Notes: generated by a model not told the origin, from the letters alone. A stretch of 64,000 bases of DNA from Synechococcus sp. (GCA_047285535.1 JBJBDC010000001.1:1792136-1856135); one strand, 5' to 3'; shown: positions 23,139-44,819, counted from the first letter of the stretch. Translations and numbers: made by a program.

Positions 23139-23144
23139 AACGAT

Positions 23145-23171: not shown

Positions 23172-23226
23172 TCTCGCCGGGTCCGCTCTGGCGCGGAACC
23201 GAGTGATCAGTCAGAAGATGAAGCCG

Positions 23227-23280: not shown

Positions 23281-23314
23281 GGACACCTCCTCCTGGATGG
23301 ATAGATGAACGCCG

Positions 23315-26457: not shown

Positions 26458-28602
26458 TTAAGCCCCCCGAGAACGGACCTCCTCTAGGTAGCCCTGGTTT
26501 TTGAGTTCGTCCCAGCTGCCAGATTCCTGGATCATTCCGTTGCGCAGAACCAGAATCCGATCAGCATCACGGATCGTTGCCAGGCGATGAGCCACGCTAA
26601 TGCGGGTGATTCCTAGCCCCTCGACAGTGGAATTGATTCTCTGTTGCGATGTTGGATCAAGAGCACTAGTTGCCTCATCCATAATGAGCACACGTGGTTG
26701 ATGGATGAGAGCACGAGCGATGGCGATGCGCTGAGCCTGACCGCCCGAAACATTGCCACCACCATCACTCAGCAAAGTCTCTAGCTTCATCGGCATTGCC
26801 TCCACTTCTTCGTCAACGGAAGCAGAACGCAGCGCCTCCCAGACCTGCTCTTCACTGAGCACTAAGCCTCCCGAGACGACGTCGAAGATAGATCCAGAAT
26901 TCAGGTGCGCAGTCTGGAGTACAACGCCGAGCTGCCTTCGGTAATTGCGGATTGCAAGCTGGTTCAGGGGGATGCCATCCACTAGCAACTCGCCTCCTTG
27001 TGGTTCGACAAAACCGAGCAGCATCCGTACCAAGGTTGACTTGCCACAGCCGCTCGGGCCGGTAATCACAGTGTTTAGACCGGCTTCGATCTCAAAGCTG
27101 AGATTGCGGAAGATGGGTTCACTGGCTTGAGGGAAAGCATAAGTAATTTCGCGGAAGCGAAAATTTCCCTCAAGCTGATGATGCACCGCATCCGGTTCAT
27201 AGCCCTTTTCAACAGAGGCATAGAGAACAGGTTCAGCGCGTTGCCAGAGAACTGAGGCTCGGCCTGCCGTCGAGGCGATAAGGTTTGCTGCCTGGGTCAG
27301 CGAGGAATTGAACCCTGTGAAAGCGGCATTGAAGGAGATGAAGCTCACTAGAATGGCCGCGAACTGAATGCTGTCACCACTGGCCGAAAGCACTCGGCGT
27401 ATGACGATAGTGAACATCATCAGCGAAGCCAGGGGCGCAACCAATGTTCCGAAGACCTGAATCCCGTCGCCATAGAAATTGCTGCGCAATTGAAGCAGGG
27501 CGTACCGGTTCACTTCGCGCAACCAACGAAGCAGCACGAAGGGCTCTGCCGCAGCACTCCGGATCTGGGGAAGCCCCATCACAGCCTGGAGAGAAAAATT
27601 AGTGATCTCAGCACCACTCTCAAGAAGGGGGCGCTGCAGGCTGACATCACGAAGCGTGAGATAGAGCAGGCCGATCAGAGAGATGACGGTGAATGCAACC
27701 GCCCAGATCGCCAACTTGGAGTCATAGATGAACATGAGAATGAAATACCCCACGCCAAATACCGCGGACAGAAGCGTCGACAGCACACCATTTCCAAGCA
27801 ACTTCCGCAACTGATTGATCGCCTCAACTCTCGAGGAGAGATCGCCCGTGGTGTACCTGGAGACAAACGCCATCGGCAACCGCATTACCCGATCAAAGAC
27901 AGCCGTCTGTAAGCGGAGATCGGTGACACTCTCCAGACGAAGCATCATCAGCGTCTGCAGATATTGAGCGGCCGCAAGTCCTGCAACGACGACGAGAACG
28001 ATGACCAGCCCTTGGAGCAGCAAAGCTTTGTCGTTAGCAGGTAAAACCTTGTTTACAAGAAGGTTGGTGAAAATAGGAAGCGCAAGGTTGAAAGCCATCA
28101 CCGCCGCAGAAGCCAGCAAGAGCCCCCAGATCGCACTGGTTTGTGTGCGGAAGGCGAACCGGAAAACACTTAACGGCCCAGGGACCACTGACGGCAGCGA
28201 TGGATAGATCTCGAAGGCCTCGTTAGCCAAACAGGCGCCCTCAGGGACCTTCCAGCGAAGATCACGAATGGCGGAATAGAACCAGTTGCGACCATTTTCT
28301 CTGAATAACGCAAGCGGCTCACCAGATTCGGCATCTTGAACAATTAGCATTGGATACTCTCCAATCCAAGGCTGGCGAGGCGCCACGATCCTGCGATGGT
28401 GAATATCGTTATTGTCCAGTTGAACGTCTATGGGAGCATCGGCGATGAGCATCAGATGCTTAATGGGGGCTTGTAACCGTCGAAGACAAAATCCGATCAG
28501 CCGAAGATCACTCTGCGGAGAAACATTCTCATCGACGTCTAGGAGAAGATTCGTCTCTATCGAATGAGCTTCCTCGAGAGCATGCTGGCGGGATGAGGTC
28601 AT
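26458..28602 (-). CDS. NHLP/NHLM bacteriocin-system ABC transporter, permease/ATP-binding, without peptidase domain
   Basis: Transmembrane domain; GPSGCGKST, VSGGQAQR and IMDEATSALD motifs. Confidence 0.88.
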   Translation of the reverse strand: MTSSRQHALEEAHSIETNLLLDVDENVSPQSDLRLIGFCLRRLQAPIKHLMLIADAPIDVQLDNNDIHHRRIVAPRQPWIGEYPMLIVQDAESGEPLALFRENGRNWFYSAIRDLRWKVPEGACLANEAFEIYPSLPSVVPGPLSVFRFAFRTQTSAIWGLLLASAAVMAFNLALPIFTNLLVNKVLPANDKALLLQGLVIVLVVVAGLAAAQYLQTLMMLRLESVTDLRLQTAVFDRVMRLPMAFVSRYTTGDLSSRVEAINQLRKLLGNGVLSTLLSAVFGVGYFILMFIYDSKLAIWAVAFTVISLIGLLYLTLRDVSLQRPLLESGAEITNFSLQAVMGLPQIRSAAAEPFVLLRWLREVNRYALLQLRSNFYGDGIQVFGTLVAPLASLMMFTIVIRRVLSASGDSIQFAAILVSFISFNAAFTGFNSSLTQAANLIASTAGRASVLWQRAEPVLYASVEKGYEPDAVHHQLEGNFRFREITYAFPQASEPIFRNLSFEIEAGLNTVITGPSGCGKSTLVRMLLGFVEPQGGELLVDGIPLNQLAIRNYRRQLGVVLQTAHLNSGSIFDVVSGGLVLSEEQVWEALRSASVDEEVEAMPMKLETLLSDGGGNVSGGQAQRIAIARALIHQPRVLIMDEATSALDPTSQQRINSTVEGLGITRISVAHRLATIRDADRILVLRNGMIQESGSWDELKNQGYLEEVRSRGA

Positions 28603-30830
28603 AACTCAACCTCAATTTGATCGCGTTGTTCAGCTGCAAGAAGTTTGCTGAAAGCACCGCCCGGATCCTCCAACAATTTCTGCGGATGTCCACACTGAAT
28701 GATCTGCCCTTGGGACATCACCAACACCTGATCACTAACCAGAGCCGCATCCAGTCGATGCGCCACGCTGACGACTGTGATCCCCTTTCGGCAGACGTTT
28801 TCGAGAACTCTTCGCTGCGTGAGGTTGTCAAGAGAACTAGTCGCCTCGTCGAGTAACAAGATCGCAGGCTGACGGATCAAAGCCCTGCAAAGCTCGAGCC
28901 GCTGTCGCTCTCCCCCACTCAGATCCCGACCATTATCCTCAAGCTGACGCAAGAATGCGTCTGGATGCCCGGTGATCATCTCCAAGAGCTGGGCAGCCTC
29001 TGCAGCCTGAACCAGATCATCTAGCTGATATTCGGGATTCCAAAGCGTGATGTTGTCCCAAATACTGGCATTTAAGACAAACACCTGCTGCGGGACATAA
29101 GCGATGCTGCTGCGTATTCTCTGATCGTTCCATCTATCCCAGATTTGACCATCAAAAAGCAACTCACCTTCGGTGGGAGGCACAAGGCCAGAGATCAGAC
29201 GAACCAGTGTGGTCTTACCAGACCCGCTTGGACCCACCAGAGCGACATGAGACCCGGCTGAAATCTCTAGATCAATTGGGGGGATAAAGGGCGGATCCAC
29301 AACATTGAACCCAAAACTGAGCCCCTTTAAAGTGATATTACCCCTTAGTTTCTCAGAAATTTCATTAGGCCTACCTTCAGCCCCAGGACGAACAACATCA
29401 AAGCTCTGAACATGGGAATCATTTTCAGAGCTTGTAAGGTCCAGCAAGCGCCCCAGATCTCCAATCAATCGCTGCACGGATGCACTCAACTGAGGCAATC
29501 CGTTGATTGGAGCCACGAGCTGGGCCTGCAGAAACTGAAAGGAGATCAGCACTCCAAGAGACAGCTTCCCAGCAATAATCAGCAGCCCTCCAATCGTGAG
29601 AACCAGAGATGACAGAAGCAAGGTGGCCGCGCTGGCACTGATCGTGGACCACGCCAGTTGGGCCCCTAGCAACTGGTTCTGCTCAACGACATTGCCGAAG
29701 TTTCCCTGCCACTGACTGAGAAAATCAAACTCGAGACCAGAAGCTTTCAGCGTCTCGATGTTATTGATACCTTGCAGTGCACGCCCTTGGGCCTTGCCCT
29801 GTTCGATCGCCAATCTGCGGTTCGCGTCGTAGCGATGCACAGTGAGCCACCAATTCAGGAGCAGATTCAACCCCAAAATCAACGCCACCAATAACGTGAG
29901 CCAAAAGGAGATCAGGGAGGTCACGATCATGATCAGCAACGCTGCCCAGCTACTAACAACAAAGCGCAGCAAATCAGCAACAACGATTTGAGTGGTGGTC
30001 ATGCCCAGGAGCATCCGTCCTGAAAGCTCACCATTCATGCGGACCTGAAAAAAAGCCCAAGGCACGGAAAACAGCTTTTCGAAAAGATCAGACGTCAGGC
30101 GTTTCGATAAAAGTAGTTCCATCCGTCTAAGCAACACGTACTGGAGGCTCAGTAATGTCAGCCACAACAAGATTGAGATGACCATTAACCAAACAATCGG
30201 GATGCCAAAATAAAGATGCTTATCCGTCAAAAAGTTGGAAATAAAGCTGGAAGTAAGACCAGCAATCATTAGGTTTGGTATGAGCAAGCCTGTCGCTACG
30301 GCAAATAATCGAATCAGTGGATTTCGATACGGAGCCAAAAGGGAAGGAAGCAGCCAAAGGGGAGAAGGATCCTCTCCCCCCTTTTGGAATTCCGGGCCGG
30401 GAGTGAACTCCAGCACGATGCCGGTGAATTTATCGAGAAACTCCTCCATCGGAATCCGGACACGACCCTGCATTGGATCACTGAGAAAAGCGTGACCGTC
30501 GTCGAAGCCCTCAACCACCAGAAAGTGATTAAATCCCCAAAAAACGATGCAAGGGAACTTGCCCTCCTCAATCAGCTGGGCTCCTGAACATTGATATCCC
30601 CTGGTTTTTAAGCCATAACTCTTGGCCGCTACCAATATGCTTTTCGCATTCGATCCATCACGATTAACGCCACACTCCTTACGGAGAATCGTCAATGGAA
30701 CGAGCCTGCCATGGTATCGGAGCACTGTGGCCAACGATGCAGCACCGCATTCAGCGGCTTCGTACTGAAGAACGGTCTTGGCCTTGACTCGCCTCCGCCG
30801 GTGGAACAGTTTCAAGGCACGAACTTTCAC
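28599..30830 (-). CDS. NHLP-type C39 peptidase/ABC exporter (leader cleavage and export)
   Basis: LQYEAAECGAASL and FNHFLVVEG C39 motifs; GPSGSGKTT, LSGGERQR and DEATSSLD motifs. Confidence 0.92.
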   Translation of the reverse strand: MKVRALKLFHRRRRVKAKTVLQYEAAECGAASLATVLRYHGRLVPLTILRKECGVNRDGSNAKSILVAAKSYGLKTRGYQCSGAQLIEEGKFPCIVFWGFNHFLVVEGFDDGHAFLSDPMQGRVRIPMEEFLDKFTGIVLEFTPGPEFQKGGEDPSPLWLLPSLLAPYRNPLIRLFAVATGLLIPNLMIAGLTSSFISNFLTDKHLYFGIPIVWLMVISILLWLTLLSLQYVLLRRMELLLSKRLTSDLFEKLFSVPWAFFQVRMNGELSGRMLLGMTTTQIVVADLLRFVVSSWAALLIMIVTSLISFWLTLLVALILGLNLLLNWWLTVHRYDANRRLAIEQGKAQGRALQGINNIETLKASGLEFDFLSQWQGNFGNVVEQNQLLGAQLAWSTISASAATLLLSSLVLTIGGLLIIAGKLSLGVLISFQFLQAQLVAPINGLPQLSASVQRLIGDLGRLLDLTSSENDSHVQSFDVVRPGAEGRPNEISEKLRGNITLKGLSFGFNVVDPPFIPPIDLEISAGSHVALVGPSGSGKTTLVRLISGLVPPTEGELLFDGQIWDRWNDQRIRSSIAYVPQQVFVLNASIWDNITLWNPEYQLDDLVQAAEAAQLLEMITGHPDAFLRQLEDNGRDLSGGERQRLELCRALIRQPAILLLDEATSSLDNLTQRRVLENVCRKGITVVSVAHRLDAALVSDQVLVMSQGQIIQCGHPQKLLEDPGGAFSKLLAAEQRDQIEVEL

Positions 30831-30839
30831 AGAATTAAC

Positions 30840-32213
30840 TTAATTGCCCCCAGCGGAAGGAACAATTTCCATGACTCCCTTCTTATTTTCAGGTGGAGTA
30901 AAGCCAAACCATCGACGCAGCCGTGGAATCACTAGAGCAATTGGTGCCACCCGTCTTGTTGTAATCGAGACCGTGAGCTCATCCGCAGGCTTTGGAGGGA
31001 AAGGCATGTCGCTATTGGAATTCCAGACATAGCCACCACGGTTCCCGCCTCGATCGTGACGGCTACGCTCCAGCTCAAGCACAGCCATGGTTGGACTTGG
31101 CTCGCGCTTTGTGATCACACTTGCCAAGCTTTGAACTCCGATACGAGACTGAACCTCCGCCTGGCTGCTGGGTAATTCCGAGACAGAAATGACCTTGCCG
31201 CGAATTCCACCCACCTCTGAACGCCTAAACCCAACCGGGGTGACCAGCACCTTCATCCCTTTACTTACTTGGGCCGCCTCTGCTGCTGAAAGAAACACTG
31301 GAACTCGCTTGGGCTCGTGAAGCTTCTTCCTACTGATTAGCATCAATTCATCGCCTCTCTTCACACCCGCACCATCGTTTGGCACTACCAAGCGAATAAA
31401 CAAATCGCTATCCGCGAAAAGCATCCCGTTGGAAATCGCCTGAGCCAAAGACTGCCTCAATTTGATGGACTCCTCGAGCAGCTCGGTCTCGAGCTTCACT
31501 AAGGTGTCATCAGTGGAGAAGAGTTGCGATTTCAGATTGTCTACTTGAGACTGCTCTGATAAAAGAGTGGGCTTGGTCACAAAGCCTTTCGCTACTAAAG
31601 ACTCCATCGACTTGAGGTAGTTCTCGCGTCTCTCGACGCCTAATTGCAAGTTGTGTTGTTTTTTCTCCAAAGTCGCTTTCTGAATCCGATTTTGACGCCC
31701 AATCGCCACTAATTCATCCACTTGTTTCTGAAGCGCCTCTCTCTCGCTGAGAGACCTGAGCCACATCAAAAGCTTCCCTTCTTGGTATTTGTGGTAGTCC
31801 GGTCCATAACCACGTCTCACATCTTTATCTGTAGGCGCCTGAGAGGGGGTGTAAGAACGAAGTATTTTCTGAGCCAGATCAAGCACCTGCTCATCAGTGA
31901 ACCGCTCAGGGTGTCGCTGAAAGGCAAGGGCTTCCTGCTCCCATGGGAAATCAGAATCGACAAACGCCCAATGCGCCACTCCGTCAACTCGCGCGCGAAG
32001 GCTATTGAGGACACCGACCGGTAGCAATACACCTGTGCCGTTAACGTCAACCGGCACTCTCGACAGAACCGACCAGAGCGTCGCCATCCCAGCCAACCCC
32101 AATCCGAACAGCAAAGTTAGCCGTAGCGGAGGAGTGAGAACACGGACTGCATTTGTATTTTCGCCAGCCTGATGGCGCTTGCGTAGCGCTCGTGTTTCAA
32201 AGATCTGCTTCAT
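30840..32213 (-). CDS. NHLP-system HlyD-family membrane fusion protein
   Basis: Single N-terminal transmembrane segment, VDVNGTGVLL, coiled coil, and RSEVGGIRGKVISVSELP. Confidence 0.88.
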   Translation of the reverse strand: MKQIFETRALRKRHQAGENTNAVRVLTPPLRLTLLFGLGLAGMATLWSVLSRVPVDVNGTGVLLPVGVLNSLRARVDGVAHWAFVDSDFPWEQEALAFQRHPERFTDEQVLDLAQKILRSYTPSQAPTDKDVRRGYGPDYHKYQEGKLLMWLRSLSEREALQKQVDELVAIGRQNRIQKATLEKKQHNLQLGVERRENYLKSMESLVAKGFVTKPTLLSEQSQVDNLKSQLFSTDDTLVKLETELLEESIKLRQSLAQAISNGMLFADSDLFIRLVVPNDGAGVKRGDELMLISRKKLHEPKRVPVFLSAAEAAQVSKGMKVLVTPVGFRRSEVGGIRGKVISVSELPSSQAEVQSRIGVQSLASVITKREPSPTMAVLELERSRHDRGGNRGGYVWNSNSDMPFPPKPADELTVSITTRRVAPIALVIPRLRRWFGFTPPENKKGVMEIVPSAGGN

Positions 32214-33790
32214 CGCAATCGCCTCTCCTGTTCATTAACCAACTGATCAGTCTCTCCAGGCCAGGTTGCGGAATAGCGATAAAGCTCAGCCACAGCGCTG
32301 TTGTAACTCTTGATTGCCAATGACAGTTGTGTTGATGACTGACCCAGCTGTTGAATGGTCTGAACAAGCGAAGTGATACTCGTCACGCCGACATCGAATC
32401 GTGCAAGTGCCGCCTCCTGGGCAAGCTGTGCACTTTTATAGGCACGTCTAGCACTATGAACAGCAATATCTGCAGACCGATACTTACCGTAACTAGAGCG
32501 CACCTGCTCAACAGCTTTCAACTTATTGAGCTCGGCTACAGATTTATTCTTAGCCTCCAGAGAGTATGCACTCTGTGATTGAGCTGCTTGAACTCCTCCG
32601 TCAAACATCAACCAGGAAAAGCCAAGTCCTACATTGGTATCCCAGCGACGTGTTTCAGCAAGATAATCTGATGTATTGAGGCCAGGCTGCCCGCTCAGTA
32701 CGCCACTTTGATACGAAAGATTTCCGGATCCGATCAAAGAAATTTTTGGCAGATATGCACGGATAGCAGCTAGGCCCCGCCACTTTGCTTGTTGAGCTGC
32801 TGCCAAACTTGATAAAATTTCCTCCCTCATTTCAATGGCGCGAGTGATAGTATCACTCAAGGATAGTTTCCACTCGGGATACAAGCGAGCTTTTTCCGAT
32901 GGAATAGCAAGCTCATCACTTTTCATACCCAAGCTCCTGGATAAAACGGCTGCTTCTGAAAGAAAAGATTGCGTGTAATTAATTAGAGAATTCAATTGAG
33001 TATAAAGCTGAGTTTCTGTTTGCGCGAGATCTTGGACGGAAACCATGAGAATGCCATACTGTGCCTGAATAAAATCAAGCTGGCGTCGGTTAATGTCATA
33101 GATTTCCTGAAAATCGTCAATAAGCTGTCTAGTACTTTGTAGAGCGTAATAGGCTGTTTGAATCTCAAGGATTAAATTTCTAGCACTTACAATAAAGAGT
33201 AATTTTTGCTCTCTCAGCGCCTCTGAGGCAGCATTAATGGATGGCTGCCGCGTTGGGTCGATTGCATCCCAAGAAAAGCTAAGGCCCGGCTGAAATGTCG
33301 CATTACTAGAATAAGTGGTGATCTGAGGAGATGTAGTCGTAGTGACCTGCGAAGATTCAGGCAGCGAAGAGAGTGAGCCTTCCTCTGTAGCAGTCGCTGC
33401 CAGATCAGAAGTAAAAGACTGGGGTCGGTATAACCTCTGAACAAAAGTTTGTGCTGTGTAACCAACGAATGGTGAGCCATTGGCAAAGCGAAGATTTGGA
33501 TACCAGCGTCTCTGTGCAGCGACAAGCTGCCACTCATACTGTTGGATCGTTCGAAAGGCAGAAACCAGCTCAGGATTGTTCTTAATACCAAGAGCTATTG
33601 CCTCGTCGAGCGTGAGACTCTTTGAAGAATTCAAGACTATGGACTGAAGGTTTTGAAGTCTTCGCAAAAGGGCATCTGCCTCCAAATCAGCTGAATCTTC
33701 TTTCGCCAATGCACTTTTGGGGAAAGAGTTGGCAATTATCGCCAAGCAGAGCGCAGCGCCAAGATAATTCTTAAGCAGCCAACGTGACAA
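32210..33790 (-). CDS. TolC-family outer-membrane efflux protein
   Basis: Signal peptide; LTLDEAIALGIKNNPEL, AYYAL, FDGG and RFDVGV motifs. Confidence 0.9.
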   Translation of the reverse strand: MSRWLLKNYLGAALCLAIIANSFPKSALAKEDSADLEADALLRRLQNLQSIVLNSSKSLTLDEAIALGIKNNPELVSAFRTIQQYEWQLVAAQRRWYPNLRFANGSPFVGYTAQTFVQRLYRPQSFTSDLAATATEEGSLSSLPESSQVTTTTSPQITTYSSNATFQPGLSFSWDAIDPTRQPSINAASEALREQKLLFIVSARNLILEIQTAYYALQSTRQLIDDFQEIYDINRRQLDFIQAQYGILMVSVQDLAQTETQLYTQLNSLINYTQSFLSEAAVLSRSLGMKSDELAIPSEKARLYPEWKLSLSDTITRAIEMREEILSSLAAAQQAKWRGLAAIRAYLPKISLIGSGNLSYQSGVLSGQPGLNTSDYLAETRRWDTNVGLGFSWLMFDGGVQAAQSQSAYSLEAKNKSVAELNKLKAVEQVRSSYGKYRSADIAVHSARRAYKSAQLAQEAALARFDVGVTSITSLVQTIQQLGQSSTQLSLAIKSYNSAVAELYRYSATWPGETDQLVNEQERRLR

Positions 33791-34126
33791 CGTGAAAAAT
33801 CAACGCACTGTATAAAAACACATTTCACTGGCATGCGCAATCCTATTAATAAGCATCAATTTCCCAACAACTGCCTCAAGAGGGAAAACCCCCAAACTGG
33901 CATCGTCAAGACGCAAATTCTTCACAACGACCTTACAGATCACAAGCGAACACAATCCCTAGCTAAAACCAAAACGAAAAACATTACAGATTACCCCTAA
34001 AACCATACCTACCCAGGCTAAAAGCTTGCACAGAATAAAACAAAATTCAAAGCGAAGACCCTAGATTGTTTCATAGCAATCCGAGAAAATGATGAGAATG
34101 CAACCTCTTGCCAACCCTTTGAGGAT

Positions 34127-34477
34127 ATTTCCAATTCCAAGCCACTTATCAAGAGAAGCCATAACCCTTGCCAACACTGACAATGACAACACAGTCGCAC
34201 TGCTTGCAAAGCCAAAAGAAGCCTCATGCAAGGCAGGGTTTATTACATCCAATGGCATAACAGTCCATTACTCGACGGAAGTGAAATAGTTCCTCCAACA
34301 ACGACCCCTAACTTTTACCCACAACGCTGCAAAATGGACAAGATGGCAAACAGGTAGTTAGACGAAGAGGCCATGCAAACTGTTACCGCAGGTGGTCCAT
34401 GCCAAACCACCAAAAACACAGCAGGCAGCTCTCACACTTACATGCCTTCAGCCACCAGCGCCGCAAGCAAGTGCTGA
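34127..34477 (+). pseudogene. Decayed paralog of the NHLP precursor
   Basis: Reads EAITLANTDND...KAGFITSNGITVHY, then a 1-nt frameshift near 34271, an in-frame TAG at 34355, and LDEEAMQTVTAGG-PCQTTKNTAGSSHTYMPSATSAASKC-stop; collinear with 34916-35266. Confidence 0.85.
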
Positions 34478-34854
34478 TCAAACACTGACTAAAAAATCAG
34501 ATTCACTCAAAACAGCAAAACACAAGCCCGAACAAGAGCAAAATCACATCCCAAACTTGTGCCAATCCACGAAACAGTTACCCGAAATCATTAAGAGTAT
34601 ATGCAAAATCCTTAGCTCCTATCAAGCAATTTTCAAAGTTCAAAGGTCAGAGCGCATTTGACACAAGTTCAAAGGAAAAGCAATTGCGATCTTCTCTCAG
34701 AAGATGTATGCTGAGATTGCTAATTACGAGGACAAGCATAAATTCTCATCATTCAAACAAATAGATTCAACTCTTCTTACATCAACAAGTTTACAATTGC
34801 AATTGTCAGGGAGACCCTCCATTGGGCTAGGCCAGTGGCAGAAAACCAAAGCAT

Positions 34855-34863
34855 TGCTATGGT
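34855..34863 (+). promoter_or_regulatory. Putative extended -10 promoter of the precursor gene
   Basis: TGcTATGGT directly upstream of a 5' hairpin (34868-34893), about 50 nt before the ATG. Confidence 0.4.
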
Positions 34864-34915
34864 AGGTAGAGTTTCCTAAGCGCAGGGAACTCTTTATAAA
34901 CAGATTTAAGAAGTA

Positions 34916-35266
34916 ATGTCCGACTTCAAGCTCATTCAAAAGGCAACAGCTTTGGCAAGCACCGATGCTGACTACAAAGCTGAATTGCTTTCCAACACTA
35001 AAGAAGCATTAAGAAAGGTCGGGTTCACTGCACCCGAAGGCGTAACAGTCCATTTTGTCGAGGAAGGTACAAATGTTCCTCCAGCAACAAGTTCCGACAT
35101 TTATTTGCAACTTGGCAAAGTGGACAATACGGCAACCATGGAATTAGACGAAGAGGCTCTGCAAGCGGTTGCTGCAGGTGGGACATGCCAATCAACAGCA
35201 AGCACAGCAGGCACAATTCCCTCTTGCGTCTCCTCAGCTAGTAGTGCCAGTTCAAAGTGCCAATGA
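34916..35266 (+). CDS. NHLP (nitrile hydratase-like leader) RiPP precursor peptide
   Basis: Leader DADYKAELLSNTKEAL...PEGVTVHFVEE...ELDEEALQAVAAGG; core TCQSTASTAGTIPSCVSSASSASSKCQ. Confidence 0.93.
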   Translation: MSDFKLIQKATALASTDADYKAELLSNTKEALRKVGFTAPEGVTVHFVEEGTNVPPATSSDIYLQLGKVDNTATMELDEEALQAVAAGGTCQSTASTAGTIPSCVSSASSASSKCQ

Positions 35267-35285
35267 TCATCAGCGTCTAGACATT

Positions 35286-35320
35286 CAAGAAGACTCTAGA
35301 TTTTTATCAGAGTCTTCTTG
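35286..35320 (+). promoter_or_regulatory. Stem-loop between the precursor and the modification genes
   Basis: Perfect 12-bp inverted repeat CAAGAAGACTCT/AGAGTCTTCTTG with no U tract. Confidence 0.7.
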
Positions 35321-35352
35321 CATTCATAATAGCAATCAATAATTTACCATCA

Positions 35353-37605
35353 ATGAGGATGCTAACCATACCCAAATTTGCTCCACACATCACCGTAACT
35401 TTCATTCCTGACGACTCCGTTGTCATCTCAGGCAGCGGATTCCAGAGTCGCCTTAAATCCCCTTACTGGCAGACATTATATCCCCTTATCAATGGTTCCA
35501 ATCAGCTAGACGACATTGTTGATATTGCAACTTCAGAAAATCCAGATTGGAGTACAACAGATCTCTACAAGTTTTTTTTCCGTCTCCACAAGAAAAACTT
35601 TCTGGTAGAAACAAATCAAGAGCGTTCACACCTTGATATTTTCGCTTTAGCGGTGAGTGAACAAAAACCGATTAGCCATGGCTTGCAGATACCAACATTA
35701 AGGATTCACCAAATCGGAGCCATCGATATTGAACCAATCAAAGCACTGATGAGCTGCACTGGGGTCAAGTTAAGCGAATCAGATAACGAACAAGCTCTCG
35801 ATATTTACCTCACAGACGATTACTTACGCCAAGAGCTAAAGGAAGTTAATCAAATCCATCTTAAGGAATCATCCGAATGGATTTTGATGCAGCTCAACGG
35901 CTTAGAGCCCATGCTCGGACCATGGTTCCACCCTGAGGAAGGAGCTTGCTGGGAGTGCCTGGCATCACGATTAAGAATGAACCGGGATCTCACAGAATTC
36001 CTGGGAGCTCACAGACAAGAGGGATACCCTTTCCCTGAACGTGTTGAGGTTCCTGGCTCGGCGTTACACATCACAGGAATACTTATCGAGCAAATTGCCT
36101 TGGCAACCTCGAAAGGTAAATCGAATATCGATGAAGCAATCTTGTCATGGAACACGTATCGATCCACGGCAACAACCCACACTGTGGTCAAACGGCCCCA
36201 ATGCAACGAATGCGGAAGCGAGCAACAGATCCATCTGCCAAAGCCGATCAACTTGAGCTCGGCACCAAGACGGCAAGCCAGCGATGCCGGCTACCGAAGC
36301 ATGACATCCGAGCAAGTCTTTGAAACTTTTAAATATCATCTGAGCCCCATTTCAGGCGTCGTCAAGCATCTTGAACGCATCACAAATCCCACCGATCCGA
36401 TTCAACACGTTTATGTCTCAGGTCAAAACTTCGCAACGTCTTATCGAAATATTCAGGACCTATCAAAGAATCTGCGTAGTTCATCCTGTGGTAAAGGCAC
36501 CACAGATATCCAAGCCAAGGTGAGTGGGCTTTGCGAAGCCATCGAGCGCTACAGCGGAGTGTTCCGAGGAGACGAGTATCGGATTCTATCCTCTCTAGAT
36601 CATCTAGGTGAAACAGGCATTCACCCAAATAGTATTCTGCTAATTAGCGATCAGCAGTACGAAAATAGGCACGAATGGAATGCTCGAAATAACAAGTTTG
36701 CCCTCGTTTGCGAACCATTCGATCCAACTGCTGAGCTGGAATGGTCGCCAGTTTGGTCGGTGACAAAGCAATGCACCAAATGGCTACCTACAGGTCATTT
36801 GTATTTCAACTATCCAATCAAAAACAATCAATTTACTATGATGCCATGCTCCAACGGCGCGTCCACTGGAGCGAGCCTTGAAGAAGCTGTTTTGCAGGGC
36901 TTTCTTGAAGTTGTTGAAAGGGATGCTTTTGCTATGTGGTGGTATCCCCGTACGCAACAGCCTCAGGTTGATCTTTCGAGTTACGACCTGCCTTATGTGC
37001 GCGCCATGGAAAAACGAATGGATGAACTGAACAGAGAACTTTGGGTTCTCGACATTACAAGTGATCTTGGGATCCCCGTTTTTGTGGCCTTTTCAAGAGA
37101 GACAACAGGCCATCGAGAAAATATCGTGTTTGCTCCAGGTGCGCACTTTGACCCCTGCATTGCGCTGTTGAGAGCTCTAACCGAGCTAAACCAAATGCTG
37201 CCTGGCGTGCAACCCGGACTAAACGGCCACGAATATGCGTTTGACGACCCCCATTGTGTTGAGTGGTGGACAACAGCAACGATTGATAATCAACCATACA
37301 TCTGCCCAAATAAAAACGCGGCAATGAGCCGGAGAGTGAATTACGACGTACCACAGACAACAGACTTGCTCGAAGATATTGATATTGCCCGTTCACTCGT
37401 TGAGTCGCGAGGAATGGAATTCATCATTCATAATCAAACAAGGCCTGACATCAAAATGCCAGTGGCTAAAGTGATCGTTCCTGGAATGAGACATTTTTGG
37501 GCTCGCTTCGCTCCCGGTCGATTATTCAATATCCCTGTAGAACTAGGAAGATTACAGATAACCCCCAAAGAGAGTGAACTGAATCCAATCTCGGTTTTCA
37601 TTTAA
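35353..37605 (+). CDS. Fused E1-like/YcaO cyclodehydratase (TOMM, PatD/TruD-like architecture)
   Basis: CWECL and CNECG zinc pairs; HLSPISGVV, GKG...EAIERYSG, SNG...LEVVERD, PGMRHFWARFAPGRL motifs; ends ELNPISVFI. Confidence 0.95.
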   Translation: MRMLTIPKFAPHITVTFIPDDSVVISGSGFQSRLKSPYWQTLYPLINGSNQLDDIVDIATSENPDWSTTDLYKFFFRLHKKNFLVETNQERSHLDIFALAVSEQKPISHGLQIPTLRIHQIGAIDIEPIKALMSCTGVKLSESDNEQALDIYLTDDYLRQELKEVNQIHLKESSEWILMQLNGLEPMLGPWFHPEEGACWECLASRLRMNRDLTEFLGAHRQEGYPFPERVEVPGSALHITGILIEQIALATSKGKSNIDEAILSWNTYRSTATTHTVVKRPQCNECGSEQQIHLPKPINLSSAPRRQASDAGYRSMTSEQVFETFKYHLSPISGVVKHLERITNPTDPIQHVYVSGQNFATSYRNIQDLSKNLRSSSCGKGTTDIQAKVSGLCEAIERYSGVFRGDEYRILSSLDHLGETGIHPNSILLISDQQYENRHEWNARNNKFALVCEPFDPTAELEWSPVWSVTKQCTKWLPTGHLYFNYPIKNNQFTMMPCSNGASTGASLEEAVLQGFLEVVERDAFAMWWYPRTQQPQVDLSSYDLPYVRAMEKRMDELNRELWVLDITSDLGIPVFVAFSRETTGHRENIVFAPGAHFDPCIALLRALTELNQMLPGVQPGLNGHEYAFDDPHCVEWWTTATIDNQPYICPNKNAAMSRRVNYDVPQTTDLLEDIDIARSLVESRGMEFIIHNQTRPDIKMPVAKVIVPGMRHFWARFAPGRLFNIPVELGRLQITPKESELNPISVFI

Positions 37606-39008
37606 TGAAAGAATCCATACATCTTCAACTACTAGCAACTCAACCCTATTCGTCTGTCATATCTGATAATGGCGTTGAAATCAACACCCCAACGAGACGA
37701 TTAAAATACAAAACCAAAAACAAAGCACTAGTCGAAGCATTTGGAAACATTTTCGACCAAAAAAAATCACTTCACGCTGCAATTCAGTTACTCACCGAGA
37801 GAGACCCTGATCAGCTTAGATCATTATTTTTAGTGCTGAAACGGCTGTACCAAGAAAATGGAATAGCCATTTTCTACCACCTCGACCAGATACACGCAGG
37901 AACCATACTGCCGATGGCGCCGATGCCATTAATCACCGACTTCTCACCATTAAGTGGAACAATCGGTCTGGCACGTTCTGCCAAACTTCATCGCCACCAA
38001 GAAGTGTTAGTTCTCGAAGCACCACTGGCTAGAGCTCGCTTAGAGATTCAACAAACCGCTCTTGTCGTCAAAATCAGCCAATGGATGGCTCAAGCAACTG
38101 TAAAGGTCGAAGAGTCTCTCCTAGCCCAATTACTTGTTGCCACAAATCTAGGAGATCTAATTACAGGGGACAATCCATTACTCTCCAAACCAGCTCCTGA
38201 GCTTGATGGATGGGGTTCCCATGAGCTCTTCTTTCAATTTCGATCGCGGCACGGATTCCACACATATCCATCCGGCGCCCTATTTCTAGCTGCTGGTCAT
38301 CGAGAACCACCCCCAGCCAACAGGATTAGAAGCGAGTCAGAAAAACGGATCCCCCTAAACAAACCAAAATCAATCAAAAGCGGCACGCTCGAGTCAGTCA
38401 TTGCAGCAAGGGTATCAACCAGCAGTTATAGGAATGAACAACCCGCACTCAATCAGTTAAGTGAACTGTTGTGGAGAACGATGCGTCAAACCGGAGAATT
38501 CTCTATGACAATTGAGGACAAGACAGGAAAATCTCACATTTTTCCACTGAAAAGTCGCCCGGTTCCATCCGGCGGTTCAGTACATGAAATCGATGCCTAT
38601 CTTTTAGTCAATGCACCAGGTTCTCTACAGAAAGGACTCTGGCGATATGATGACAAGAATCACGAACTTGTGATGGTGACAACACTCAATAATGACACCG
38701 AATTAATCCTCCTTCATGGACAGATCTCAGCAGGATTAGAGAAGCTGCCACCCATGATGCTGATATTTTCCGCACGATTTGATCGAATGATGTGGAAGTA
38801 CTCAGCACTTCCGTTAGCCGCTATCCTTAAACATGTCGGAGTTCTCTATGAAATTTTTTACCTAGTAGCTACAGACATGCGCTTAGGAGTCCGCGGATTG
38901 GGAAGTGGTGAATCAAGGGCATTCTCTCAGGCTATCCAAGTTCATCCCGCTGTTGAGTCAAGCGTTGGAGAAATGCTAATTGGTCTCCCTGCACAACACA
39001 TAGCATGA
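37605..39008 (+). CDS. SagB/ThcOx-family FMN azoline dehydrogenase
   Basis: HELFFQFRSR, RPVPSGG..HEIDAY and RMMWKY...KHVGVLY...YLVAT motifs. Confidence 0.9.
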   Translation: MKESIHLQLLATQPYSSVISDNGVEINTPTRRLKYKTKNKALVEAFGNIFDQKKSLHAAIQLLTERDPDQLRSLFLVLKRLYQENGIAIFYHLDQIHAGTILPMAPMPLITDFSPLSGTIGLARSAKLHRHQEVLVLEAPLARARLEIQQTALVVKISQWMAQATVKVEESLLAQLLVATNLGDLITGDNPLLSKPAPELDGWGSHELFFQFRSRHGFHTYPSGALFLAAGHREPPPANRIRSESEKRIPLNKPKSIKSGTLESVIAARVSTSSYRNEQPALNQLSELLWRTMRQTGEFSMTIEDKTGKSHIFPLKSRPVPSGGSVHEIDAYLLVNAPGSLQKGLWRYDDKNHELVMVTTLNNDTELILLHGQISAGLEKLPPMMLIFSARFDRMMWKYSALPLAAILKHVGVLYEIFYLVATDMRLGVRGLGSGESRAFSQAIQVHPAVESSVGEMLIGLPAQHIA

Positions 39009-40450
39009 CGATGCAACAGACAATCTCGAATGAATTAATCAGATTTCATGAGGTTCTTGCATCCAATTCTCACGTAAAGAGATTTGCGGAAAAATGGCTA
39101 TCCGACCCATCATTTCGAGAGGCCTTTCGAATCAACCCCAAACAAACTCTCTCCCAACATCACATCAAGCTTGATGAAAACGAAATCGTTCTCATCAGCG
39201 AGGGGAAACCCTCATCGGCTCTTGAACACCTGGAAGAAATTAAGCGTCAAAAGGAAATCTGGACTCATCACTTCTATAGCCAGACGTGCGCACCTATCGA
39301 TGAATCATGGCTGAGCTGGCGCAAACGCCAAGTTTCGCGGCAGATATTCGACCTTGGACCTCAACATGCGCTCTCAAACATCCACTCATCTCTGACTGTT
39401 GAACTAAACAAAGGTTGCAGTGTCGGCTGCTGGTTCTGCGCTTTAAGCCCTGACAAAAACACTATTCCGATGTTGTATGACTCTGGAGGGGAAGCTCGGT
39501 TCTCCACCTTGATTCGCGCGATGCAAAAAGAGCTTGGTCCTGCGGTGAAAAGCGGATTCCTCTATTGGGGAAGCGAGCCGATGGACAACCCTGATTACGA
39601 GCGTTATTGCCTTGATTTTCATTCCATCACAGGTGTCTTTCCTCCCACAACAACAGCACTACCCCATAAAGACCCAGAGCGTACGCGTCGATTTTTAAAA
39701 CTTGCTGATAAGCACAATGCCTGGCTGAGCCGATTCAGCGTTGCTTCGACAAGTCTCATGAATCGCATCCACTCTCTTTTCACAGCCGAGGAACTCGCCA
39801 CAACCGAGTGCCTGTCCCTGAATGCTGAGAGTTCTTTCTCGTTTGGTGTAGGAGGTCGATACCGCGATTATCTAAAGAAGCACCCAGAGATCCTTCAAGA
39901 GCAAAAGCAGAAACTAAAAAATGCACCTTTTTACGAGGAGATCAAGGAACATCTAAATGAAGAAACGCATGCGCACGGCTCCATTGCCTGTGTAACAGGT
40001 TTCCTGGTTAATTTAGTAGATCAATCGATTGCATTGATTGCACCTACCCACGCTGATGATGAGCACCCTCTGGGATATATCACATTTTCCAAAGAAACCT
40101 TTTCGAGCAATAGTGAAATCGTCAGCACAATCAGAACTGTTGTAGAACGCGGCAGAATTCTGGCACTCCGAAACAAAGATATCTGCGCTTTTCCCTGCTA
40201 CATCAAATGGGACCAGGACAAATCCGACATTATTTTTCAGGGTAGGCTTGGTACCAAGATTCGAGCTAAAAGTCTTGGTAAAAAGCCTAATTTGAATAAA
40301 CTATGTACTCTACTCAGCCACGGCAACCATTCGAAGCAAAAGATAGTTTCATCCTTCCCCAAAGAAAAAGAATGGATCGAATCAGTCCTCCATCGCCTAT
40401 GGCTAATGGGTGTATTGAAAGAGCCTAGCCATGCTAAAACAACTCCATGA
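39005..40450 (+). CDS. Radical SAM RiPP epimerase (PoyD/OspD-like)
   Basis: N-terminal HVKRFAEKWLSDPSFR; ELNKGCSVGCWFC (CxxxCxxC), FLYWGSEPMDNPDYE and GSIACVTGFLVNLVD motifs. Confidence 0.88.
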   Translation: MTMQQTISNELIRFHEVLASNSHVKRFAEKWLSDPSFREAFRINPKQTLSQHHIKLDENEIVLISEGKPSSALEHLEEIKRQKEIWTHHFYSQTCAPIDESWLSWRKRQVSRQIFDLGPQHALSNIHSSLTVELNKGCSVGCWFCALSPDKNTIPMLYDSGGEARFSTLIRAMQKELGPAVKSGFLYWGSEPMDNPDYERYCLDFHSITGVFPPTTTALPHKDPERTRRFLKLADKHNAWLSRFSVASTSLMNRIHSLFTAEELATTECLSLNAESSFSFGVGGRYRDYLKKHPEILQEQKQKLKNAPFYEEIKEHLNEETHAHGSIACVTGFLVNLVDQSIALIAPTHADDEHPLGYITFSKETFSSNSEIVSTIRTVVERGRILALRNKDICAFPCYIKWDQDKSDIIFQGRLGTKIRAKSLGKKPNLNKLCTLLSHGNHSKQKIVSSFPKEKEWIESVLHRLWLMGVLKEPSHAKTTP

Positions 40451-42836
40451 TTCGGTGCCTCCAACTCAGCGACTTGCAAGCTGGTTCATCACCAAGCCTA
40501 CTGCTCATGAAACGATTCAGCACAGAAAAAGACTTGTTAAAGGGTCTTTAAAAGGCGCATGGGGTGAAATCTATGAGAATGATCTCCTCTATCAGAATGG
40601 AGAGATCGACTTCACCCACCCTGATCTGCCAGCATGGATCACACACGCGGATCGCATCGCTTCTTCTCCTCCACTTAGCTTTGCAAGGGATTTAGGAACA
40701 ACACCAAAGTCGCGAGAATTATTCTTTTTTCTATCACCAATCACCAACTATGGATACAACCTACTAACAGAGCATCTGTCATCTATTGAGATAGAAGTTT
40801 CAGACATCGCCATTCAAGGAATGATAGCAGGACTTGGGCACAGAATCATGCAGACATGCGTTGATATTGCTGATATCGAAATCAGTGCATGGTTTAATCT
40901 TGCCAAGTCACTCGGAGATCAAAAAAATCCACAAATCACTATCGATTCATCCACCTATCCGGATCTTTATGAACGCTATCCTGCCTTAGCATTCATTATC
41001 GGCCATGGCATTGGCCAATGGTTCGAAGCCGTCAAAGAGATGACAAGTCGCCTAGCCGAGGACCTTCCTCGACTGCAAGAGTTTTTATTTAATAGCCATC
41101 GCATCCACCGCCTCGAAGATGTCTCGATGGATACGGGAGACATTCACGATGATGGTCGATCTGTAGCCCTACTGACATTCAATAACGAGCAGAAAGTGGC
41201 CTACAAGCCCAAAGACCTCAGGATTGCCAAAGAAGTTCAGGACCTGTTTGACATTATCAACAATAAAATTGGCAAGAAGATTCTGCACGTTCGCACAATC
41301 ATTGTTGGGCAGGGATATGCATGGGAAGAATTCATACCCCATTCTGAGTGCAATTCATCCCTTGATATTTCCCTTTATTATCAAAGATATGGGGCCATGG
41401 TCAGAATTTATGAACTTCTACAAGCTCGCGATCTCTGGCTGGACAATGTCATTGCCCATGGAGCCTGGCCCGTAGTCATTGACCTCGAAATGGTTATGCA
41501 ACCCTGGATGGCTCCAAGCGAGGCAAAAAATGCCTGCGAGTTTCATGCGCAGGAGCTCATCGAGCAAACAGCGCTTCCGATCGGCTTGATCTCGATGATG
41601 TTCCCGATAGATGCTGATGAACCCCTTGAAGACATGGGTGGTTTAACACCACACCGGCCGTTTCGTACGCCATTCCGAATGCCTTCAATAATCGAAGTGG
41701 AAGGTAAAAGCAACAGTCGCGTGTATTTAAATAATGACATTTACACTCCACGACTTGGCACTTCCATCGTTAACTCACAGGCCTGGCTTGACGATGTCCA
41801 AAAGGGTTACAACGAGATGGATCAACTCATTGAAGATACTGTTCAGCCAGATATTCGACAATGGCTAGATCAACTTAATCCTTCATTTCCTGTACGTGCC
41901 ATTTACAGAGATACGTGGACATATCAGCAGATCCTGAATAGCTCCTGTGCAGGAAAATATTTACGATCTGTGTTCCATCGCGAAGCCTACCTAGCAAAAT
42001 TGCCCACCAGCCTTCAATTTCTTTATCCATCGCATTCTGCTCAATCACGAATTGTCTTTTCTGAAATTGAACAACTACGACAACTGGACATTCCTTATTT
42101 TATTTCCGAACTAAATGACGGAGAGCTCCGCGAAAGTACAGGTAAGAGTTTGGGCACAATTTTTCATGGCAGCCCTCTCGCGAGCATGAAACAGCGCTGT
42201 TATTTCCCTGCAGAGAAAGACTTCAGACGAGATTGTCTGGCAGGTGCTTTAGAAACAGGCCATGGAAGCCAGGGCACCGAAACGCGCATTGTTCTTGCCT
42301 TAAGTGCCTCAACCCTGGAAACAATTCACGAGATCAGCCATCTGCTGCTGTCTTGGTCCATCAATCTTGAAGGTGATTATGCCTGGATCACTTACACCGC
42401 ACATCCAGCAACCAAAACCGTTGTGCTCCAATCCATTCGCCCCACCTATCCGGGCATGCTGAAGGCGGCAATTGCACTCCGCAAAGCACAGCTATGCACA
42501 GGACTTTCTTCACTGACACCCGCGATCCAATCCCTCAGACGCCAGGTAGACGTCTGCCGCAATCAAATCATCGAATCGATAGCCGCCTCCTGCAGCCAAC
42601 CTTGGCATCATTCGGAGGAGGATGGATTACCAGGGATTGAAAGAGGGAAGGCTCATTTGGATGAACTACTGATGATGGGGGCACCATCCCCTACTACCAA
42701 ATCCGGCCCTATAGCTGTTCAGCTGCTTTCGACAACCCGTATTCCTCCAAGGCTATGGCTACTTGGAGAGCATGGCGTCTTTGCTCTACTTGATTCACTG
42801 TGCAGTCAGCACCTCGCGCATCAGGATGCTGGTTAG
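40431..42836 (+). CDS. LanM-like (DUF4135) dehydratase-domain protein with a degenerate C-terminal domain
   Basis: GDIHDDGRSV, YKPKDL, YAWEEFI, DLWLDNVIAHG.WPVVIDLE, RAIYRDTWTY and DIPYF motifs; no LanC WCxG or CHG motifs. Confidence 0.85.
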   Translation: MLKQLHDSVPPTQRLASWFITKPTAHETIQHRKRLVKGSLKGAWGEIYENDLLYQNGEIDFTHPDLPAWITHADRIASSPPLSFARDLGTTPKSRELFFFLSPITNYGYNLLTEHLSSIEIEVSDIAIQGMIAGLGHRIMQTCVDIADIEISAWFNLAKSLGDQKNPQITIDSSTYPDLYERYPALAFIIGHGIGQWFEAVKEMTSRLAEDLPRLQEFLFNSHRIHRLEDVSMDTGDIHDDGRSVALLTFNNEQKVAYKPKDLRIAKEVQDLFDIINNKIGKKILHVRTIIVGQGYAWEEFIPHSECNSSLDISLYYQRYGAMVRIYELLQARDLWLDNVIAHGAWPVVIDLEMVMQPWMAPSEAKNACEFHAQELIEQTALPIGLISMMFPIDADEPLEDMGGLTPHRPFRTPFRMPSIIEVEGKSNSRVYLNNDIYTPRLGTSIVNSQAWLDDVQKGYNEMDQLIEDTVQPDIRQWLDQLNPSFPVRAIYRDTWTYQQILNSSCAGKYLRSVFHREAYLAKLPTSLQFLYPSHSAQSRIVFSEIEQLRQLDIPYFISELNDGELRESTGKSLGTIFHGSPLASMKQRCYFPAEKDFRRDCLAGALETGHGSQGTETRIVLALSASTLETIHEISHLLLSWSINLEGDYAWITYTAHPATKTVVLQSIRPTYPGMLKAAIALRKAQLCTGLSSLTPAIQSLRRQVDVCRNQIIESIAASCSQPWHHSEEDGLPGIERGKAHLDELLMMGAPSPTTKSGPIAVQLLSTTRIPPRLWLLGEHGVFALLDSLCSQHLAHQDAG

Positions 42837-42914
42837 CTCGCATTAAGTCCTGACCAGCTGCGCTCCTGGCGAGGACCATCGCCGAAACCTGCCAGGCGAG
42901 GGCGATCAAAAGAA

Positions 42915-44567: not shown

Positions 44568-44819
44568 GGGCTTGATCTGAATGGTTCCTATTAAAAAGCC
44601 TCACTCAGTGGGGATGAGGAAACTAACAATTCCGCTCGCCGAAACAACAATCAATAGTCACATGATTGCGGCTCAAACGAAGAGGAGCACAGCCAACTCC
44701 TGAGGCTGCCATCAACAGCAAAAACAAGATTTACAGCTCTCCTCGAGACAAATCCTCAAGAACCAGAAACAAGTTCCTCCAGGCAAACAATATAAAATCA
44801 ATCAAATAATTCTCAACAC

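Follow-up and report, generated by a model that had tools for sequence, protein, structure and literature searches.

Characterised dehydrazoles and a related locus in Synechococcus

Dehydrazoles have been defined by Pei, Zhu and Nair as peptides that are synthesised ribosomally and modified post-translationally (RiPPs), with an NHLP (nitrile-hydratase-like leader peptide) leader, a YcaO protein paired with a dehydrogenase, a radical S-adenosylmethionine (rSAM) epimerase and a "LanMbC" enzyme, in which DUF4135 is joined to a class III-type cyclase domain that is free of zinc (PMC10676384). The founding member carnazolamide was reconstituted in 2023 from the cca cluster of Chryseobacterium carnipullorum, and about 50 dehydrazole-type clusters have been reported (PMC10676384). 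Moreover, nostatin A has been isolated from Nostoc sp. CCALA 1144 (Delawska et al. 2024; PMC11583998). Here, we analyse a stretch of 64,000 nucleotides from Synechococcus sp. (GCA_047285535.1 JBJBDC010000001.1:1792136-1856135), hereafter the window, in which positions 26458-42836 probably hold an intact dehydrazole-type (carnazolamide/nostatin-like) proteusin gene cluster that has been acquired as a 16.5-kb island.

In carnazolamide biosynthesis, the azoles are formed first, dehydration follows and the epimerase acts last, inverting Pro15 alone (PMC10676384). The order is fixed because the leader-independent dehydratase CcaM acts only on Ser residues preceding an azole. CcaM (WP_073335633.1) consists of 1015 aa, and its C-domain (residues 645-1015, i.e. 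370 residues) is required for activity (PMC10676384). In the nst cluster, the genes are arranged in the order NstC (NHLP precursor), NstD, NstE, NstF (PoyD-like) and NstG (LanM-like), and the nostatin core has been printed as AASCQTTASSACTTPSCLSSASTASSNSCS (PMC11583998).

Gene content of the island and comparison with known clusters

The island comprises the following features:

26458..28602, minus strand, ABC exporter subunit without peptidase domain (NHLM ABC2-like; ABC_membrane and ABC_tran)
28599..30830, minus strand, C39 peptidase-ABC exporter (NHLM ABC1-like; Peptidase_C39 110.9 bits, residues 17-146)
30840..32213, minus strand, HlyD-like periplasmic adaptor (TIGR03794 73.2 bits, under the cut-off of 156.2)
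32210..33790, minus strand, TolC-family outer-membrane channel (OEP PF02321 134.5 bits)
~34146..34477, plus strand, pseudogene, a decayed second copy of the precursor whose core has diverged (tblastn, DNA alignment, repeat D2)
34916..35266, plus strand, NHLP-leader precursor (116 aa; 89-aa leader ending in GG, 27-aa core TCQSTASTAGTIPSCVSSASSASSKCQ)
35286..35320, plus strand, hairpin between precursor and enzyme genes (minimum free energy -21.3 kcal/mol, z -4.55)
35353..37605, plus strand, fused E1-like/YcaO cyclodehydratase (NstD/CcaB type; PF02624 297.5 bits)
37605..39008, plus strand, SagB-type FMN dehydrogenase with ThcOx-like N-terminal domain (TIGR03605 118.9 bits)
39005..40450, plus strand, PoyD-family rSAM epimerase (NstF/CcaD type; TIGR04517 348.4 bits, cut-off 325)
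40431..42836, plus strand, short LanMbC-type dehydratase of 801 aa (DUF4135 PF13575 264.9 bits, residues 183-559)

An ORF scan of the window placed the nine open reading frames (ORFs) of the island where an earlier note on this DNA had located them, and three gene overlaps are literally present in the sequence (TAATG at 37603-37607, ATGA at 39005-39008, and the ATG at 40431 with the TGA at 40448-40450). Families were called with Pfam and NCBIfam and scored against the curated cut-offs, which bore out the domain calls of the note as well; the names of catalytic motifs and the CylM residue numbering are those of the literature. The catalytic features of the rSAM, YcaO, SagB, C39 and DUF4135 proteins are intact. 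The island genome (3.03 Mb, one contig; G000) contains one YcaO protein and one intact NHLP precursor as revealed by genome-wide searches and thus, the system is self-contained, as had been proposed. Likewise, the enzyme assignments and a secreted product of about 27 residues with azoles, dehydro residues and a D-residue are supported. What does not stand is the presumed novelty of the combination: carnazolamide (PMC10676384) and nostatin A (PMC11583998) are made by the same four enzyme types acting on NHLP precursors. In substance, the nst and cca literature describes characterised clusters with the same enzyme set, and the nostatin core is homologous to that of the island. The cluster therefore belongs to a characterised class and reveals no new class of RiPPs. 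Three features stand out, namely the insertion with its clear limits, the exchange of the exporter and the short but conserved dehydratase, while the product would be a further variant of the dehydrazole/nostatin-type proteusins.

The gene set and order are identical to NstC-D-E-F-G (PMC11583998). An alignment by eye of the island core with the printed NstC core gives 17 identities in 25 positions if no gap is allowed and 18 in 27 if one is; in four of the eight mismatches of the ungapped alignment, Ser and Thr are exchanged. Both cores have the triplet layout Dhx-azole-X (Dhx, dehydro residue) and a central Thr-x-Pro-Ser-Cys in common. NstD, NstE and NstF have 796, 492 and 475 aa, compared to 750, 467 and 481 aa in the island, whereas NstG (1075 aa) is considerably longer than its 801-aa counterpart (PMC11583998). 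A homologue of NstG from Nostoc sp. KVJ20 (WP_069070537.1) is 99.1% identical to it (PMC11583998). Neither an NstA-type B12 rSAM C-methyltransferase nor NstB was found among the island ORFs and, with the former missing, no isobutyl-Pro is expected. Moreover, the bridging Cys12 of nostatin corresponds to Gly10 in the island core, which precludes the sactionine bridge. For transport, the nst cluster has two plain ABC proteins of 635 and 588 aa, while the island encodes a C39-ABC/ABC/HlyD/TolC system, and cleavage after its Gly-Gly would drop the Ala-Ala that precedes the first dehydroalanine (Dha) in nostatin (PMC11583998). The island peptide would thus be a simpler nostatin analogue lacking the sactionine bridge and the alkyl-proline, which could help to find the features of nostatin A that matter for activity and the role of such peptides in the plankton.

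With the cca cluster, the island shares the NHLP precursor, the YcaO/dehydrogenase pair, the rSAM epimerase and a DUF4135 protein with a zinc-free cyclase-like domain. Carnazolamide carries about eight azoles, about eight Dha residues and one D-Pro in a core of about 30 residues (PMC10676384). However, CcaM has a C-domain of 370 residues compared to about 160 residues in the island protein, the zinc ligands being absent there too. Furthermore, the island lacks counterparts of the S-methyltransferase CcaH and the S8 leader protease CcaF, the latter being replaced by the C39 transporter, and its host is a cyanobacterium rather than a flavobacterium (PMC10676384).

YcaO clusters have also been described for the marine Synechococcus strains UW179A and BIOS-E4-1, which belong to the same broad group of organisms (PMC10783134). 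Like the island, they combine a YcaO protein with a SagB-like protein and a protein that aligns to the dehydration domain of CylM, and their precursors are annotated as NHLP or thiocillin. However, they comprise a cytochrome P450 and nine precursors, the available text mentions no rSAM epimerase, and the precursor features Thr120, Cys126 and a KPKKH tail do not fit the 116-aa island precursor (PMC10783134).

Insertion and mosaic origin of the island

The cluster is a precise 16.5-kb insertion between two convergent DUF2079 genes. A repeat search uncovered a family (D1) of two direct copies, 91% identical to each other, at its edges:

26222..26350, no strand given, left copy of the 129-nt direct repeat, 3' end of the DUF2079 gene 24934-26355
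42912..43040, no strand given, right copy of the 129-nt direct repeat, 3' end of the DUF2079 gene 42915-44567

In a complete genome of the same genus (G016), the window segments 21509-26348 and 42928-44564 adjoin. At this empty site, the 3' ends of two convergent DUF2079 genes overlap and the segment of about 129 nt is present once. The preserved empty site and the flanking repeat date and delimit the acquisition. Among the nine island ORFs, no recombinase-family match was obtained with Pfam and NCBIfam, and the island holds no further ORF of at least 150 aa. At third codon positions, the five biosynthetic genes and TolC have a GC content of 0.39-0.46 and the remaining three transport genes one of 0.54-0.59; among six conserved flank genes, five have values of 0.53-0.65.

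In surveys of the genus, which were draws of 40 genomes, the dehydratase query matched in 9 of 36 genomes at E<=1e-10, all matches being ProcM-type frames of 1063-1149 aa with 24-28% identity, and no orthologue was found among the 36. The dehydratase had no match in 24 genomes from other families of the class, and an even draw of the class gave none in 400 other genomes at E<=1e-40, G000 being the sole match. The nst locus of Nostoc was not recovered in this draw, and no named Nostoc protein was among the matches of the precursor search. By contrast, a species-representative collection yielded 26 related loci, three of which (L004-L006) contain the collinear five-gene operon, while all four enzymes occur together in seven. 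These three loci are derived from metagenome-assembled genomes (MAGs) of a member of the Bacteroidota, a member of the Ignavibacteria and a Ca. Kapaibacterium, respectively. Their proteins are 63-65% (precursor), 61-66% (YcaO), 45-54% (SagB), 52-60% (epimerase) and 46-53% (dehydratase) identical to those of the island. In the phylum of these MAGs, 1 of 400 other genomes matches at E<=1e-40.

The exporter has a different affiliation. The NHLM models TIGR03796 (C39-ABC, 678 bits, cut-off 853.3), TIGR03797 (second ABC subunit, 540.6 bits, cut-off 709.4) and TIGR03794 are the best NCBIfam matches of three transport proteins, all of them below the cut-off, and the HlyD-like adaptor had no Pfam match above threshold. 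The C39 domain contains the Cys of ECG and the His of NHF and is predicted to cut the leader after Gly-Gly. In two genomes of the genus (G031 and G005), TolC, HlyD, C39-ABC, ABC and a LanM gene are collinear, their products being 55, 58-59 and 72-73% (TolC, HlyD and C39-ABC) and 74% (ABC) identical to the window proteins, and the LanM following this export module is of the ProcM type (1128-1138 aa). Since the similarity of TolC to these orthologues begins at residue 46, translation may in fact start downstream of the TTG at 33790. Orthologues of C39-ABC with 60-73% identity are present in 12 of 40 other genomes of the genus, and judged by coordinates, the gene lies 3-5 kb from a ProcM-type gene in 8 of the 12. 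The transporters of L004-L006, in contrast, are 27-31% identical to the island exporter. Because the exporter resembles the ProcM modules of the genus (55-74%) while the biosynthetic genes are nearest to the loci of the Ignavibacteria and Bacteroidota MAGs, the island is a mosaic, in which a prochlorosin exporter of the genus type has been joined to a foreign dehydrazole operon. It shares with prochlorosin systems the orthologous collinear export module and the Gly-Gly leader end, but differs from them by an NHLP instead of a Nif11 leader and by azoles and dehydro residues instead of lanthionine rings. Thus, the locus is a clean natural case of module exchange.

No ProcM-type enzyme was found in G000, the island gene being the sole DUF4135 match in this genome. 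G000 also has eight Nif11-leader ORFs over the TIGR03798 cut-off (e.g. C1:1132137-1132343 and 783292-783438), and these orphan peptides might use the island exporter.

Precursor, decayed copy and hairpin

The precursor matched the NHLP leader model TIGR03793 with E 4.6e-11 and 42.4 bits (cut-off 50.9), NHase_alpha with E 6.9e-4 and the thiocillin-family model NF033482 with 25.3 bits (cut-off 25). As in dehydrazoles, a long nitrile-hydratase-like leader precedes a core in which 18 of the 27 residues are Ser, Thr or Cys. The protein has ten relatives that are 61-78% identical. In this family, the core residues C2, T5, A6, P13, S14, C15, S20 and C26 are invariant, and the Pro-Ser-Cys centre including Pro13 is kept in all 11 precursors. 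The core contains seven (S/T)-(C/S/T)-X triplets, a layout that is compatible with azole-adjacent dehydration.

The earlier note counted one precursor, which is right for the intact genes but overlooks the decayed copy at ~34146-34477, about 500 bp upstream. This pseudogene was detected by tblastn as two pieces in different frames, which are 44% and 50% identical to the precursor, and it is broken by one TAG and a frameshift. Precursor and pseudogene share a 100-nt repeat (D2) of 70% identity, and the core of the decayed copy would read ...AGGPCQTTKNTAGSSHTYMPSATSAASKC. Its presence shows that the island formerly carried two precursors. At L004 2838-4751, and alike at L005, the nostatin-like precursor and the YcaO gene are separated by four more ORFs with NHLP leaders. 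Their cores are unrelated and either Cys-poor or Cys-rich, and one enzyme set in these Bacteroidota and Ignavibacteria MAGs may serve several different cores.

None of 200 shuffled sequences folds as well as the hairpin at 35286-35320, and a GC hairpin with a T-run is found in the same position, 3' of the precursor, in L006. The hairpin is a possible attenuator or stabiliser between precursor and enzymes; its position fits attenuation, without proving it. A consensus scan of 33700-35450 gave five promoter-like sites (2.7 expected) and two terminator-like sites (2.3 expected), which are of no further use, and made no terminator call at the hairpin. A look-up of sequencing runs listed no RNA run for 34700-42900.

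Azole-forming enzymes and epimerase

Besides PF02624, the YcaO protein matched TIGR03604 (229.3 bits, cut-off 219.25) and the leader-binding domain TIGR03882 (108.1 bits). It has two CxxC pairs in the E1-like half and a GKG...EAIER ATP block. The SagB protein also matched PF22767 (34.2 bits) and PF00881 (26.3 bits) and contains the Lys-Tyr motif of such enzymes as WKY. It is predicted to oxidise azolines to azoles.

The score against TIGR04517 and the cluster motif CxxxCxxC, present as CSVGCWFC, assign the epimerase to the PoyD family. The enzyme is 60% identical to the one of the Ignavibacteria MAG, 41-44% to those of Chryseobacterium and Tenacibaculum and 32-34% to those of Nostoc and Scytonema. 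A tree of 32 sequences, picked from 120 listed to include all named ones and representatives, revealed that the window enzyme and the Ignavibacteria sequence form a group (100/100), whose sister group (94/90) consists of the Chryseobacterium/Tenacibaculum sequences. A 100/100 branch separates the window enzyme from all six named cyanobacterial epimerases. Metagenome proteins for which no taxon is given are 66-87% identical to the enzyme, and an epimerase of 98% identity is encoded on a different contig of 3.07 Mb, which indicates that a sister strain shares the cluster. The predicted target is Pro13. Residues 23-69 of the epimerase (window 39071-39211) gave weak matches to NHLP-clan models (NF038399 28 bits, cut-off 40; TIGR03793 E 0.1), and the N-terminus may carry a leader-like segment.

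A short dehydratase with a reduced cyclase-like domain

The gene for the DUF4135 protein is syntenic with the YcaO gene, as in dehydrazole clusters, the two lying in one operon of overlapping genes. The protein scored 293.3 bits with TIGR03897, which is under the cut-off of 304 and covers model positions 2-620 of 932. No LANC_like match was obtained with Pfam for the 801-aa protein, and a Pfam search with residues 561-801 returned no family at E<=10. The earlier note had seen a dehydratase domain only; the C-terminus, however, probably is a zinc-free remnant of a LanC-like domain of about 160 residues. CylM and LicM2 are the sole significant sequence and fold matches. An AlphaFold model (pLDDT 83.5, pTM 0.83) retrieved LicM2 (E 6.7e-25) and CylM (E 1.2e-23) in a structure search, and the alignments extend from residue 1-4 to 797, covering 644 positions of LicM2 (chain residues 9-1013, Z 26.5) and 672 of CylM (chain residues 3-984, Z 25.4) and reaching the C-terminal end of both. 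The family profile aligns to CylM 195-728, while the profile-profile alignment to full-length relatives with DUF4135 and LANC_like stops at residue 707, within the first LanC repeat; the fold of the C-domain is known from the full-length model alone.

Twelve relatives of 790-816 aa (query coverage 92-100%, PF13575 only) are 36-87% identical to the enzyme by BLASTP and 34-87% in the alignment, the other matches having 862-1141 aa. The orthologues from L004 and L006 have the same short architecture, and the short form is present in the complete operons of L004-L006. Among the 13 sequences, residues 641-801 show a mean pairwise identity of 37% with 0.7% gaps, compared to 43% for the N-domain and 38% for the linker, and residues 600-801 contain no conserved Cys or His column. 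Because the twelve relatives as well as L004 and L006 share it and because the C-domain is conserved, the short form is not accidental. Sequence and model suggest that the C-terminus is a cut-down, zinc-free LanC-like domain under constraint. Such a shorter dehydratase, conserved in distant relatives, can reveal which part of the cyclase-like domain is truly needed for azole recognition.

The kinase and lyase residues corresponding to CylM D252/H254, K274, D347, N352, D364, R506 and T512 are kept without exception in the 13 family members. At the position of CylM His349, the family has an invariant Trp (W336), and the active-site block of the window protein reads DLWLDN (DUF4135 residues 333-340). 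This block was surveyed in 35 DUF4135 segments from 34 loci (L004-L029, L031-L035, L044, L045 and L047), in which the sequences are interrelated and the counts not independent. All 21 segments whose loci gave a strong E1-YcaO match nearby (tblastn E<=1e-30) have D-[LF]-W-[LF]-D-N. In contrast, D-x-H-x-E-N, as in CylM, was found in all seven ProcM-type enzymes of the window's genus and in L017 (8/8 of the proteins that are ProcM-type or lack a YcaO), and D-F-T-x-D-N in four loci (L011, L013-L015) with weak YcaO-domain matches. L010 and L047 have the Trp as well, but a YcaO gene would go unseen in these short or truncated loci. The pattern makes D-[LF]-W-[LF]-D-N a possible marker of azole-dependent dehydratases. 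The main text of the carnazolamide study never mentions His349, H349, Trp or tryptophan (PMC10676384).

A canonical class II LanM was considered for this protein and rejected on the TIGR03897 score under the cut-off, the lack of LANC_like and of conserved Cys/His, and the DLWLDN block.

Proposed pathway and product

By analogy with the characterised clusters, the E1-like half of the YcaO enzyme would bind the 116-aa precursor via the leader, and in each (Ser/Thr)-(Cys/Ser/Thr)-X triplet, YcaO and SagB would turn the middle residue into an azole. The azole sites would be C2, T5, T8, C15, S18, S21 and S24, possibly also C26 and T11. The short LanMbC would then phosphorylate and eliminate the Ser/Thr residues preceding the azoles (T1, S4, S7, S14, S17, S20 and S23), yielding dehydrobutyrine (Dhb) or Dha. 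A classical LanM dehydration guided by the leader is at odds with CcaM, which needs no leader and only accepts Ser before an azole (PMC10676384). Late in the pathway, the epimerase would invert Pro13, and the C39-ABC/ABC/HlyD/TolC machine would cut after Gly-Gly and export the peptide. In lanthipeptide chemistry in general, an exposed N-terminal Dhb hydrolyses to a 2-oxobutyryl group; accordingly for the island peptide, cleavage would expose Dhb1, and its hydrolysis would generate an N-terminal 2-oxobutyryl group.

The predicted product has 27 residues with about 7-8 azoles, seven dehydro residues and one D-Pro. C26, which has a following residue, may be a thiazole, free, or added to a Dha, and T11 may be a methyloxazoline as in nostatin or intact like Thr13 of carnazolamide. 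The computed monoisotopic masses are 2549.10 Da for the unmodified core, 2282.85 Da with seven azoles and seven dehydrations, 2262.82 Da if C26 forms a thiazole as well and 2244.81 Da with a further oxazoline, the keto N-terminus adding 0.98 Da. With respect to stereochemistry, the earlier suggestion of D-residues would hold for one residue. Multiple D-residues as in polytheonamide are unlikely, because the epimerase inverts one Pro, late, in both characterised relatives, and Pro13 is the invariant candidate in 11/11 precursors.

Weighing the alternatives

Several points weigh against an intact and functional dehydrazole-type cluster. What is observed is the set of genes with their intact motifs and homologies, as well as the insertion and the mosaic origin; every chemical step, the expression and the biological activity we infer by analogy. 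The decayed second precursor indicates that some erosion has already occurred in the locus. The NHLP and NHLM models score under the curated cut-offs, and the link to the Cca and Nst enzymes is made by family models, architecture, the printed core and the epimerase identity of 41-44% to Chryseobacterium and Tenacibaculum proteins, whose function is unnamed. Moreover, the activity of the short dehydratase is a prediction: its cyclase-like domain has about 160 residues, while the excised N-domain of CcaM is inactive without the 370-residue C-domain, and Trp336 replaces CylM His349. Finally, carnazolamide had neither antibacterial nor cytotoxic activity (PMC10676384), and the bioactivity of nostatin A can therefore not be carried over to the island peptide.

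The dehydratase and the pseudogene are also what a silent or decaying acquisition would build on, in which an indispensable piece of the C-domain has gone from the short enzyme and the peptide either is not produced or has azoles as its sole modification: the required region of CcaM (645-1015) is reduced here to about 160 residues with no LANC_like match, and one precursor copy has already been lost. However, the nine ORFs are open with translationally coupled overlaps, the 790-816-aa architecture is maintained in 12 relatives down to 34% identity with a C-domain conserved like N-domain and linker, the same short form lies inside the complete operons of L004-L006, and the kinase and lyase residues are invariant, which makes decay improbable. 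Even less can be said for a previously uncharacterised hybrid class, a reading that goes back to the earlier note, in which a leader-guided LanM-type dehydratase, working independently of azoles, would be combined with a polytheonamide-like epimerase that introduces several D-residues. It is true that the epimerase passes the PoyD family model and that DUF4135 is the LanM dehydratase domain, but where the same combination has been characterised, dehydration depends on the azoles and not on the leader, and one Pro is inverted late (PMC10676384; PMC11583998), the core is homologous to that of nostatin, and the epimerase groups with Bacteroidota-type enzymes from dehydrazole contexts rather than with the named cyanobacterial proteusin epimerases. 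We regard this reading as very improbable. A thiopeptide-like pathway, joining two Dha residues into a pyridine macrocycle as in thiocillin, is hardly credible: the marginal NF033482 score and the Ser/Cys-rich core would suit it, but the nearest characterised products are linear or have a single thioether bridge in the literature available. It was rejected since neither a LanB-type split dehydratase nor a [4+2] pyridine synthase is among the Pfam/NCBIfam matches of the nine ORFs.

Starting from the dehydrazole-type assignment, a more far-reaching idea can be put forward, although it is speculative and as a whole probably not correct. The 790-816-aa clade would be a natural minimal core-dependent dehydratase working with half of the cyclase-like domain of CcaM, and the Trp block would mark an azole-dependent, enolate-free elimination. 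A marine-type picocyanobacterium would have fitted a foreign nostatin-like operon to its resident prochlorosin exporter, and the peptide would perhaps be aimed at eukaryotic grazers, not at bacteria. Grazers come into question since V-ATPase has been reported as the target of nostatin A (bioRxiv 10.64898/2026.03.27.714872).

Surroundings of the island

The regions 21447-26355 and 42915-46259 next to the insertion encode four paralogous DUF2079 membrane proteins and a PMT_2 glycosyltransferase. A different middle section is present at this locus in another genome of the genus (G034), and the arrangement varies among same-genus genomes; the gene 44820-46259 has a low GC content (0.45). The surroundings from 21447 to 46259 are a variable cell-envelope locus. 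Upstream, two SLH-OprB porin paralogues lie in tandem (17096-18907 and 19379-21115). A piece of about 500 bp of the second porin (~20620-21160) occurs at five other sites in the genome with 94-97% identity and in many same-genus genomes with 78-91% identity. Downstream, at a distance of 3.5 kb from the right edge of the island, there is a gene for a photosynthetic reaction centre (Photo_RC; 46578-47633), the product of which is 98% identical in G016 and G034; it identifies the host as an oxygenic phototroph.

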